Origin: Escherichia coli | GTDB lineage: Bacteria; Pseudomonadota; Gammaproteobacteria; Enterobacterales; Enterobacteriaceae | DNA: 64,000 nucleotides | Assembly: GCF_003334335.1 (NCBI RefSeq) | Contig: NZ_QOWQ01000029.1 | Direction: 5' to 3' (one strand) | Shown here: piece after piece, positions 31,602 through 32,427 of the stretch | Layout of the letters: each line of letters begins with the position of its first letter | Numbering within the stretch: the first letter of the stretch is position 1 | Notes under the pieces: model-generated | The model's database searches: none | Seen by the model: only the letters and a program-made list of their open reading frames with translations | What the model was told of the DNA's origin: nothing | Translations under genes and position numbers: made by a program

Positions 31602-31677
31602 GGCCCTTTAGCTCAGTGGTTAGAGCAGGCGACTCATAATCGCTTGGTCGCTGGTTCAAGTCCAGCAAGGGCCACCA
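31602..31677 (+). tRNA. ileY: tRNA-Ile2 (anticodon CAU, lysidine-modified)
   Basis: GGCCCTTTAGCTCAGTGGTTAGAGCAGGCGACTCATAATCGC...GGTTCAAGTCCAGCAAGGGCCACCA; cloverleaf with anticodon loop CTCATAA. Confidence 0.9.
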
Positions 31678-32427
31678 AATCATTATTTACGTATCAGGAA
31701 GAGTTAAGGGTACAAGGGGTACTCGATGGCGGTCTATATTTCATGACTAACGCCATTTCAAGGAAGAAGTGCGGTGGGTGGTTTCGAATGAGGGCTGGTG
31801 TTTTGGTACGTGGCACGCCACTGCAATGTATTTATCCATCAGTACTCATTCAAAAGTACCTGGAAAAAATGCCTGCTATGCCAAGCGGGCAAATTGCTTA
31901 CATGTGGAATTAAGTAATTAACGATAAAGCCAGAGTATTATCATTTATTATACCCCTTCATTTAATCAGGTTAATTACTCAAATCACTGAACTATTCTCT
32001 GTTCGCTCACTGATGATAAGTGAGTACCACAACCAATGTATGTAGAACAATGCCGTAGAGTAAGGATGAAATGTCTCTGCCACGCCTTAAACATCTACTA
32101 CTGACCAGAACACCCGCCGCAGGCAGATGAGTTTTGTGAGCGTTACAGGAGCGTGGCTATGCTCATTAACCAACGCTATTGAGATATAAATTTCTAACAC
32201 TTGAAAAACGATTTTCACTAATAAATTATAACGGTTTTTTTTATCATACAGCGAAATAACCTTTTGTTTATTAAATTTAACATTCCTGTGCTAATTTAAT
32301 TAAAAGTTCCATGCGTAGCAAGTGAAGCAGTTAATGTCAGTAATTGTCTCAAATGAGCGTTTTTTTATAGTGACAAACAGTAATAACATTAAAAATAGCC
32401 ATGTAGACATTAATTGAGGAATAGACA

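Follow-up and report, generated by a model that had tools for sequence, protein, structure and literature searches.

The window analysed here is a stretch of 64,000 nucleotides of Escherichia coli DNA (RefSeq assembly GCF_003334335.1, contig NZ_QOWQ01000029.1), and it contains the ileY-ypjC intergenic region of a K-12-type strain, a locus that is already known and well mapped (MG1655 2,785,011-2,785,762). The neighbouring genes (ygaQ, ileY, ypjC/ypjB, the pinH remnant and ypjA) are alike in K-12, and the 750-bp spacer at 31678-32427 is 100% identical to that of K-12, BW25113 and the MG1655 derivatives. The published K-12 sites of the sigma-70 and sigma-S holoenzymes, the binding of H-NS and Hha and the Rho termination all apply to the window, and the map used to convert K-12 coordinates into window positions was checked against PMC6928379. 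The window strain differs from K-12 in lacking the CP4-57 prophage at ssrA, and hence ypjA lies only 160 bp from ssrA; K-12 genomes match the window only to about 39476, inside the ssrA 3' end. The features discussed below are collected in Table 1.

Table 1. Features of the ileY-ypjC locus and its surroundings, in window positions
Feature	Position	Strand	Basis or remark
Variable AT-rich accessory block: ygaQ pseudogene, ileY, spacer, ypjCB pseudogene, pinH remnant, ypjA	28654..39302	.	Presence/absence, GC
Promoter-like site TAGATA-16-TATCAT, upstream of ileY	31366..31393	+	Consensus scan
ileY, tRNA-Ile2 gene (anticodon CAU)	31602..31677	+	ARAGORN, Rfam, RefSeq
attB segment of ileY, anticodon loop to 3' end; attR direct repeat in occupied strains	31631..31677	+	NT1F25, viral-contig and L027 junctions
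tRNA trailer, poorly conserved; Rho-dependent termination region, peak 31705	31678..31785	+	E. albertii comparison, Adams 2021
Hairpin 1, 66-nt imperfect palindrome, 24 pairs	31786..31851	+	Folding against shuffles
41-codon ORF inside the hairpin cluster	31788..31913	+	Open in compared sequences
Hairpin 2, 8-bp GC-rich stem UGCCUGCU/AGCGGGCA	31870..31891	.	Folding, terminator scan
Hairpin 3, 9-bp AU-rich stem, one invariant G.U pair	31892..31919	+	Folding, alignment
Overlapping promoter-like sites	31938..31974	.	Consensus scan (- site), sequence reading (+ site)
ypjCB upstream region, 35% GC	32000..32427	+	Without E. albertii homology, which ends at 31999
ypjCB pseudogene, in which an internal stop separates ypjC from ypjB	32428..33801	+	First real gene after ileY
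ssrA (tmRNA), 3' end toward the block; CP4-57 of K-12 absent	39454..39816	-	ARAGORN, Rfam

The tRNA gene to the left of the spacer is tRNA-Ile(CAU) ileY, as originally predicted, and several assignments agree on this. ARAGORN calls a tRNA with the anticodon CAT at 31602-31677 on the + strand, the Rfam tRNA model scores 73.8 bits, RefSeq names the identical sequence tRNA-Ile in E. coli, and the gene labelled ileY in K-12 is identical, including its published 3'-end sequence. The other tRNA-Ile(CAU) copy, ileX, shows 97.4% identity in every genome, the differences being at positions 6 and 67 (PMC11480407). The cloverleaf with its CAU anticodon, the identity to K-12 ileY, the RefSeq name and the similarity to ileX place the gene with the Ile2 type and not with elongator or initiator tRNA-Met. 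In K-12, the CAU anticodon of tRNA-Ile2 is modified to lysidine by TilS, reads AUA and is charged with isoleucine. The ileY gene can be deleted and is unable to replace ileX (PMC11480407), while E. coli W and B have lost it through IS-mediated deletions (PMC3032704); of the two genes for the AUA-reading tRNA-Ile2, ileY is thus the second and the dispensable one. The hexamers of the promoter-like site upstream (TAGATA and TATCAT) are the same as those listed for the constitutive sigma-70 promoter of ileY in genomic SELEX (PMC3946193).

ileY lies within a variable block of 10.6 kb that is flanked by the glaH (csiD) promoter region on one side and the ssrA terminator on the other. The GC content of the block is 42.2% against 50-52% in its flanks, and the low values begin about 3 kb upstream of ileY (at about 28.3-28.65 kb), with AT-rich DNA on both sides of the tRNA gene. 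In B2-type genomes the homology to the window breaks off at 28653 and is regained at 39303, and the interval is occupied by 333 bp of unrelated filler; for instance, the B2-type strains Nissle 1917 and LF82 are without the whole stretch 28654-39302. The filler was found in 1,104 of the 5,426 genomes (about one fifth of E. coli, these two strains included), the spacer in 3,113 and the upstream flank of ileY in 3,353, and in most genomes the two flanks of ileY are either both present or both missing. The difference at the block in B2-type genomes may reflect either a gain elsewhere or a loss in B2. E. albertii is 94.5% identical to the window up to 28603 and 67% thereafter; it carries a very divergent version of the left part of the block, where its ygaQ is only 67% identical. 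This accessory block is old, AT-rich and found only in Escherichia, and it occupies the interval from the glaH promoter to the ssrA terminator.

AT-rich DNA on both sides, together with the B2-type boundaries, places ileY in the middle of the block and not at an anchoring end of it. Moreover, AUA is three to eight times more frequent in the block genes than in their neighbours (12-36 ATA codons per 1000 as compared with 0-5.5 in lhgO, glaH and smpB), and from these codon counts ileY is suggested to be cargo that serves AUA-rich genes. The first gene to its right is the ypjCB pseudogene; the intact YpjCB protein has the domains DUF5507 and DUF5508 and gave no match in PADLOC. In our best explanation, ileY is cargo in the middle of the block and not the insertion site of the block, the attachment site that it contains is empty in the window, and the DNA to its right is a flank with the anatomy described further below; we give these parts jointly a probability of about 0.7. 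The layout of the block, its boundaries and the empty site are demonstrated by the comparisons given here.

The original prediction had instead been that ileY anchors an islet of AT-rich DNA starting at its 3' end, and that the 750 bp might hold att-site remnants. There are observations that would suit an islet integrated at the 3' end of ileY, with the spacer as decayed att remnants: tRNA-Ile(CAU) genes do serve as attachment sites, the gene content to the right of ileY differs among strains, and a remnant of a serine recombinase (pinH, a 168-bp fragment and the only recombinase trace between ileY and ssrA) is found 2.5 kb downstream. However, in a search of the whole window with up to 3 mismatches, the last 25 nt and the last 15 nt of ileY, as well as the 20-nt core at which other elements cross over, occurred only once, in ileY itself, and the 3' end of ssrA likewise matched only ssrA itself. 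A general repeat search over 27.5-40.5 kb returned only the internal repeats of ypjA and chance pairs, and no integrase gene, tyrosine integrase included, is present between ileY and ssrA or beside ileY. A compositional shift does exist (37.2% GC in the spacer, 49.6% in the window), but it does not start at ileY; the variable boundaries expected from a comparison of strains exist as well, yet at 28653 and 39303 and not at the tRNA gene, whose two flanks mostly occur together. The variable right-hand endpoints seen in other strains are due to IS insertion or to deletion beside elements at ssrA. Finally, where ileY really carries an insertion, the spacer is not part of the inserted element but follows attR immediately. 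An islet anchored at ileY is therefore largely refuted and retains very little credibility, and the att remnants sought in the 750 bp are not seen in the window.

ileY is used by other elements elsewhere, and this shows its status as an attB, not the existence of an island in the window. Judging by the junction sequences, ileY is a genuine attachment site with the crossover in the anticodon loop, and it is unoccupied in the window. In NT1F25 a 48-kb island is inserted in ileY, where attL forms a hybrid tRNA and attR corresponds to 31631-31677, followed by the spacer. Six viral-contig loci lose their homology to the window at 31631 or 31632. An 11-kb element resembling a phage satellite, with an integrase, a primase, a major head protein and a small terminase (locus L027), has the same boundary as in NT1F25, and at an E. 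albertii locus (L016) an integrase adjoins the ileY junction. That part of the original prediction which named tRNA-Ile(CAU) genes as integration sites is thus borne out by integrase-bearing elements inside ileY in further strains of E. coli and E. albertii. A core of identical sequence marks the crossover at 31631-31650 (GACTCATAATCGCTTGGTCG) and has a single copy in the window. The end of the NT1F25-type island is found in 455 genomes, and many of these copies are at the chromosomal position of ileX, for which insertions are documented (PMC9144400). The 3' two-thirds of ileY (31631-31677) is a working attachment site as well, a secondary landing site for tyrosine-integrase elements whose main target is ileX.

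The occupied ileY loci resemble the tRNA attachment sites of islands and satellites, such as the tellurite-resistance islands at ileX: ileY of the other strains is split at the anticodon loop, a complete hybrid tRNA is found at one end of the element, and the displaced native 47 nt are at the other end, beside the integrase gene. The window differs from ileX-type islands in that its site is empty and the surrounding AT-rich DNA has neither repeats nor an integrase and has its boundaries elsewhere. Because of these absences and of boundaries away from the tRNA, the DNA downstream of ileY is best regarded as the flank of an unoccupied site, and since the site is empty, the 750 bp are simply its right-hand chromosomal flank. 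The block is also similar to the variable slot downstream of ssrA (CP4-57 in K-12, P2-like and other elements elsewhere) in lying on the 3' side of ssrA, and in many strains it has been replaced, truncated or extended by elements integrated at ssrA. In contrast to that slot, the block starts 150 bp past the ssrA 3' end, at the terminator, and no copy of the ssrA 3' end is found at its far edge; hence an origin through an ssrA integrase is not supported. The main result is a correction, namely that a tRNA gene beside AT-rich DNA need not anchor that DNA: ileY is here a passenger of a variable block, and its own role as a landing site for other elements, empty in the window, is independent of this.

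The description of the spacer as AT-rich and non-coding holds, as its GC content is low, RefSeq has no annotation in it in most genomes, and its ORFs gave no match in NCBIfam or PHROGs. The ORF at 31584-31913 was rightly regarded as spurious: it overlaps the tRNA gene and starts with TTG, three of six strains have ACG in place of its ATG at 31743, and an in-frame stop occurs in O145. Its relatives, like the homologues of a 74-residue ORF, were only hypothetical proteins of Escherichia. Over its whole length the spacer has less than 95% identity in 29% of the genomes, and it is composed of three parts: a variable trailer where Rho stops the transcription of ileY (as found by others in K-12), a conserved cluster of three hairpins, and the normally silent promoter region of ypjCB, bound by H-NS and Hha. 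In E. albertii the trailer has insertions of 23 nt and 13 nt. The Rho termination is listed by Adams 2021 (supplementary file 2, position 2785734(-)), where bicyclomycin raises the downstream reads from 30 to 218; the Rho score is 3.63 (p 2e-10).

The hairpin cluster (31786-31919) begins 110 bp downstream of the tRNA gene and is single-copy. Among the 3,093 E. coli genomes that carry it, its identity is at least 99% in 2,620 and 95-99% in 473; no other part of the spacer is as well conserved within E. coli. It is 91% identical in E. albertii, and its conservation between the species equals that of the tRNA itself. By this conservation, across about 3,100 genomes and the sister species, it stands out from silenced DNA that diverges fast. 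Some strains (H69 and H70 among them) have lost the cluster or have it interrupted, and hence it is not essential. A 25-mer of the cluster, searched as an exact match in one genome per species, was found only in an E. coli-like contig of a mislabelled MAG; at that level, the element is therefore not seen outside Escherichia. Phage and plasmid collections gave no true match at distant sensitivity, and Rfam (E <= 1, 27-41 kb) matched only the tRNA and the tmRNA. The cluster is unannotated and is the one item at the locus that is possibly new. Two other identities were considered for it. A repeat of the ERIC, REP or MITE type was rejected because the cluster is single-copy in every genome, and a retron-like non-coding RNA, suggested by the long hairpin, because there is no reverse transcriptase nearby and YpjCB matches no defence system.

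The folding z-scores of the cluster on the + strand range from -3.8 to -5.7, and 99.6% of the cells in its alignment are standard pairs. For hairpin 1 the + strand is preferred in E. coli (z = -3.84, with none of 200 shuffles as stable, and 24/24 pairs) over the - strand (z = -0.81 and 19/24 pairs), and all 9 differences in E. albertii keep the + strand pairs. No pair is changed on both sides, and the support consists of one-sided changes from G.U to A-U or G-C, most of them along the one branch that separates E. coli from E. albertii; by simulation, 9 random transitions would keep every pair with P = 0.04-0.06. Hairpin 2 has a perfect stem in 10 of 13 sequences, and strains such as IAI1 and O145 have this perfect allele; in the K-12 type, a U.G pair on the + strand corresponds to C.A on the - strand. 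On the - strand, its GC-rich stem encloses a loop of 6 nt and is followed by U6 (the complement of 31864-31869), and it thus has the form of a canonical intrinsic terminator for leftward transcription. The Term-seq data of Adams 2021 for K-12 have no 3' end at this U run or at hairpin 2 on either strand; as the region is silenced in the laboratory, the missing 3' end is weak evidence.

The suggestion that the spacer holds an unannotated small RNA stands in so far as a conserved, structured element of 135 nt is present, and falls short in that no transcript of it occurs in published 3'-end maps or in three Hfq interactome supplements (RIL-seq or CLASH); in the literature, no small RNA has been reported for ileY-ypjC. 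The cluster might be a functional, Escherichia-specific structured RNA tied to ileY, a proposal that we consider rather doubtful. It could then be a stable piece freed from ileY read-through when Rho or the H-NS/Hha silencing is relieved, or else a two-way transcriptional insulator that shields the tRNA gene against the neighbouring foreign DNA with its many promoters. Within our best explanation, the role that we infer for the cluster is to buffer transcription between ileY and the AT-rich DNA with its many promoters: leftward, antisense transcription would be terminated by hairpin 2, and the hairpins of the + strand would form in read-through RNA.

Taken by itself, a functional + strand RNA, either a stable piece of ileY read-through (a 3' external transcribed spacer RNA) or a cis-acting element, is unlikely. 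The cluster has the same orientation as ileY with no terminator between, its G.U pairs favour the + strand only in E. coli, and its conservation both within E. coli and between the species would fit such a role. It resembles the 3'ETS of leuZ and the rtT RNA after tyrT, where conserved, structured non-coding DNA also lies directly 3' of a tRNA on the same strand without an intervening terminator. However, Rho stops most ileY transcripts in K-12 and thereby most of the read-through, no 3' end is mapped at the hairpins, the three Hfq supplements have no entry, there is no two-sided covariation, the E. albertii palindrome folds equally well on both strands, and neither rtT nor any other Rfam model matches. 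It is very unlikely that the conserved part instead encodes a small RNA of about 80 nt on the - strand, with its start near 31940 and its end at hairpin 2 and U6 (about 31862). A promoter-like site on this strand (TTAACC-16-TATAAT at 31974-31947, from the consensus scan) matches the consensus at 10 of 12 positions, the terminator is canonical and perfect in most alleles, and the 70 nt concerned hardly differ between E. coli and E. albertii (two differing positions in 31862-31931). On the other hand, this leftward site is poorly kept in E. albertii, where the -10 hexamer is TACAAA, the C.A mismatch of the K-12 allele weakens the terminator, folding in the K-12 type is no better than that of shuffles (z = 0.26 for 31858-31942), and hairpin 1 is left unexplained. 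As for an Hfq-dependent small RNA, the promoter-like site and terminator are seen on the - strand, while no 3' end is reported on that strand and neither the three RIL-seq or CLASH supplements nor Rfam have an entry for it.

The cluster also contains an ORF of 41 codons, for which a protein-coding role, perhaps combined with an antisense RNA in the manner of type I toxin-antitoxin pairs, is extremely improbable. Its frame is open in E. coli and E. albertii, a GGUGG motif lies 7 nt upstream, and the start codon within a long hairpin and the antisense terminator over the 3' end are reminiscent of some type I toxin loci. Yet the codon changes towards E. albertii (9 amino-acid-changing and 3 silent) are roughly neutral and give no sign of purifying selection, the product has no hydrophobic stretch that could form a helix and matches no protein family, and the ORF and the 30 nt past its stop codon are equally conserved. 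The longer versions of the ORF lose the start codon or gain a stop, and two assemblies have a frame shift in the 41 codons. The ORF is probably not a gene.

Within E. coli, conservation of the spacer is lowest downstream of the cluster, at 32000..32427. A + strand promoter-like site, TTATCA-17-TTTAAT at 31938-31966, was read from the sequence and overlaps the leftward one; SELEX lists TTATCA-18-TTTAAT as the ypjC promoter, together with an H-NS site (PMC3946193). Binding of the sigma-70 and sigma-S holoenzymes and of H-NS has been reported for the spacer (PMC3946193; PMC5493296), and a SELEX peak of the sigma-S holoenzyme falls at about 32189 (PMC5493296), a position obtained by our own conversion between coordinate versions. 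Hha binds the region as well, and ypjC was induced in that study (PMC2408971).

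The only tRNA gene that ARAGORN detects in the whole window lies on the + strand with anticodon CAT, a call backed by the Rfam tRNA model. The Met label assigned by ARAGORN is derived from the anticodon alone; RefSeq labels the same sequence in E. coli as tRNA-Ile, and it is identical to the entry named ileY in a published table of K-12 3' ends. The adjoining spacer has a GC content of 37.2% against 49.6% window-wide, is 100% identical to K-12 strains and carries no annotation in most RefSeq genomes, which agrees with the original prediction of a tRNA-Ile(CAU) followed by about 750 bp of AT-rich non-coding DNA. 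The same prediction regarded the overlapping ORF as spurious, and we reach the same view: three of six diverse strains have ACG at its candidate start (31743), the O145 version is interrupted by a stop at codon 6, protein-family searches give no match, and its relatives are Escherichia 'hypothetical proteins' only.

Features of the ileY locus (window positions)
Feature	Position	Remarks
Variable unit	28654-39302	limits deduced from genome comparison
ygaQ	28790-31042	pseudogene
ORF	31584-31913	overlaps ileY
ileY	31602-31677	tRNA-Ile2 gene
Spacer	31678-32427	750 bp
Trailer	31678-31785	poorly conserved; 23-nt and 13-nt insertions in E. albertii
Hairpin cluster	31786-31919	three hairpins on the + strand
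Hairpin 1	31786-31851
Hairpin 2	31870-31891
Hairpin 3	31892-31919
ypjCB upstream region	31938-32427
Promoter-like sites	31938-31974	overlapping, both strands
Invariant segment	32055-32105	51 nt; AAGGA, then two short overlapping ORFs (12 and 19 codons)
WP_001120794.1	~34529-34648	RefSeq 39-residue hypothetical protein
ypjA repeats	38259-38366	run of 12-nt repeats rich in AAACC/CCAGA units

The gene order is gabT-gabD-lhgO-glaH, the ygaQ alpha-amylase pseudogene, ileY, the spacer, the ypjCB pseudogene (split into ypjC and ypjB), a 168-bp recombinase remnant, ypjA, ssrA and smpB. The K-12 prophage CP4-57 is missing, and the match of K-12 genomes to the window ends at about 39476, within the ssrA 3' end. 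When the region 27000-40600 was searched against 5,426 complete E. coli genomes, one class of genomes was found to have glaH and ssrA only 680 bp apart; here the homology ends at 28653 and restarts at 39303, the gap being filled by an unrelated 333-bp sequence. This filler occurs in 1,104 genomes, Nissle 1917 and LF82 among them; in the locus of B2-type strains (L003) it occupies 2154-2486 and is unrelated to any window sequence. Counts are 3,113 genomes for the spacer and 3,353 for the upstream flank of ileY, indicating that both flanks are present or absent jointly in most genomes. From these end points and this co-occurrence, the variable unit across strains is deduced to be the segment between them with ileY in its middle, its left limit just upstream of the glaH promoter region and its right limit at the ssrA terminator. 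Moreover, the GC content drops at about 28.3-28.6 kb, i.e. 3 kb upstream of ileY, and is 36.1% in the DNA left of the tRNA gene. The idea that ileY anchors an AT-rich islet is hence not supported.

Nor did remnants of att sites appear right of ileY, as had been suggested: with up to three mismatches allowed, neither the last 25 or 15 nt of ileY, nor its 20-nt crossover core, nor the ssrA 3' end has a second copy in the window, and no integrase gene lies between ileY and ssrA.

In other strains, ileY is a real attachment site. NT1F25 carries a 48-kb island, encoding a tyrosine integrase, a CbtA/YeeU toxin-antitoxin pair, Ag43, a type I restriction system, sugar-utilisation genes and the pga operon, between one complete tRNA and one partial copy. 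The complete tRNA is a hybrid, with the native 5' part and, from position 49, a different T arm and an ileX-type acceptor strand, while the partial copy is the native 31631-31677 with the spacer after it, just as in the window. The two copies have in common GACTCATAATCGCTTGGTCG, reaching from the anticodon loop to the variable loop. The same junction, with an integrase beside it, is seen in an E. albertii contig (L016), and in six of the ten spacer-containing IMG/VR contigs the homology ends at 31631 or 31632. One of these six, IMGVR_UViG_648276668_000008 (L027), shares the NT1F25 junction and has an 11-kb element (513-11405) adjoining the ileY attR, with an integrase, a repressor-like protein, a primase, a major head protein and a small terminase; its other end was not recovered, and it looks like a capsid-forming phage satellite. 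We also observed an intrinsic terminator of the 48-kb island directly 3' of the hybrid tRNA (713-765 of the left island end, L013; AAAGGGTTAGC...GCTAACCCTTTTTC), whereas native ileY has none and relies on Rho.

The NT1F25-type island end is found in 455 genomes, with many copies at the chromosomal position of ileX, itself a documented insertion site of tellurite-resistance islands (PMC9144400); ileY is therefore used secondarily, by elements whose usual target is ileX. A contiguous ileY region was found in 2,857 of roughly 3,020 spacer-bearing genomes; the about 160 that lack one set an upper limit to occupancy and IS insertions combined. Further right-hand variants are seen: IS903B has inserted in the spacer, the DNA to the right of the spacer has been replaced beside a copy of IS3 and an element located at ssrA, or there is a fusion with a P2-like prophage remnant, also at ssrA.

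The second copy ileX, 97.4% identical, is found in every E. coli genome and differs from ileY at positions 6 and 67; as a tRNA-Ile2 gene, ileY is dispensable (PMC11480407), and strains W and B have lost it (PMC3032704). Alleles of ileY vary among E. coli strains and E. albertii (L005-L009, L014, L015) with the cloverleaf kept throughout. For instance, G.U/G-C at the anticodon-stem pairs 27:43 and 28:42 is replaced by G-C/G.U or G-C/A-U, and position 67 is A or G facing U6, while E. albertii has the ileX-type C6-G67 pair. Certain alleles may be scars of earlier element integration and excision. ATA codons number 12-36 per 1000 in genes of the block versus 0-5.5 in lhgO, glaH and smpB, which would fit an AUA-reading tRNA travelling with AT-rich DNA. 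Taken together, ileY is best explained as a dispensable tRNA gene inside an old, silenced, Escherichia-specific accessory block, with its segment from the anticodon loop to the 3' end serving as an attachment site that is unoccupied here, and the 750 bp is the chromosomal flank of that site, comprising a Rho-terminated trailer, a conserved hairpin cluster and a silent promoter region.

A Rho termination region was mapped with its best position at MG1655 2785734(-), i.e. window 31705, and bicyclomycin raised the reads in the 800 nt downstream from 30 to 218 (score 3.63, p 2e-10; Adams et al. 2021); the conversion (window = 2,817,439 minus MG1655 position) was checked with a mutation annotated at +199 from ileY. 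In the ypjCB upstream region, genomic SELEX identified a ypjC sigma-70 promoter (TTATCA-18-TTTAAT) with H-NS binding (PMC3946193), and a sigma-S holoenzyme peak (PMC5493296) that our own conversion of coordinates places about 510 bp downstream of ileY. The ileY region is also a binding target of Hha, in a study that likewise found ypjC induced (PMC2408971). Homology to E. albertii stops at 31999, followed by ykgO, ykgM and ykgR, which indicates a rearrangement breakpoint just right of the hairpin cluster. These genes, seen next to the homology in TW07627 and KF1 (L014 and L015, 9700-11500), map in K-12 at a distance of about 0.3 Mb from the origin. The invariant segment is identical in six diverse E. 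coli strains and missing from E. albertii.

Among the six diverse strains, no other part of the spacer is as conserved as the hairpin cluster. It is single-copy in 3,093 genomes, at an identity of at least 99% in 2,620 and 95-99% in 473, with none lower; by comparison, the whole spacer falls below 95% in 29% of genomes. It is 91% identical to E. albertii, with just two differences across 31862-31931. This constraint does not act on protein, because a 41-codon ORF within the cluster has nine amino-acid-changing and three silent codon differences from E. albertii, and the 30 nt past its stop are conserved to the same degree.

Our inference is that the cluster serves as a transcriptional buffer separating ileY from the AT-rich DNA with its many promoters; hairpin 2 would halt transcripts running leftward. 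On the - strand, an 8-bp GC-rich stem followed by U6 makes hairpin 2 a canonical intrinsic terminator; the stem is perfect in 10 of 13 distinct sequences and carries a C.A mismatch in the K-12 type. The main rival is that the cluster represents a + strand RNA derived from the trailer. Folding z-scores for the window, strain Yu5 and E. albertii are -3.84, -4.12 and -5.66 on the + strand, against -0.81, -2.06 and -4.80 on the - strand. Standard pairs occupy 99.6% of cells in the alignment of the 13 sequences; eight pairs with a one-sided change remain paired, a pair is broken in two single sequences, and two-sided changes are absent. In hairpin 1, E. coli and E. albertii differ at nine positions, each by a transition that preserves + strand pairing (P = 0.04-0.06 by simulation), a pattern suggestive of + strand structure rather than proof of it. 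No Rfam family matches the cluster, the published K-12 table reports no 3' end within it, and three Hfq interactome supplements hold no entry for the region. Phage and plasmid collections contain no relative, and among species-representative genomes a 25-mer from the cluster has an exact match only in one contaminated MAG. The buffer role is put forward as a candidate function; the layout of the locus and the empty ileY site are shown. The locus is a known and ordinary one; the cluster is, as far as the literature searched shows, its sole item without a prior description.

Some further observations concern the block and its relatives. The E. albertii core flank is 94.5% identical as far as 28603, past which ygaQ (L014 7043-9259) falls to 67% nucleotide and 59% protein identity. 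This gene is intact in some strains; we found no close relative of YgaQ outside Escherichia, and the next relatives after that of E. albertii are 32-35% identical, with the neighbouring glaH at 94.5% in DNA, so that ygaQ is either very fast-evolving or separately acquired. WP_001120794.1 lies between the recombinase remnant and ypjA, and its equivalent bears the name 'ATPase' in one genome. The 12-nt repeats of ypjA would encode a proline-rich linker, and the gene has several internal repeats at 380-780-bp spacing, as is usual in passenger domains of autotransporters. One contig (DEQI01000374.1, L017) from a MAG that bears the label Planococcaceae is 99.9% identical to this E. coli locus and hence probably contamination, and three PLSDB 'plasmids' of 4.8-4.9 Mb (H161-H163) are E. 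coli chromosomes.
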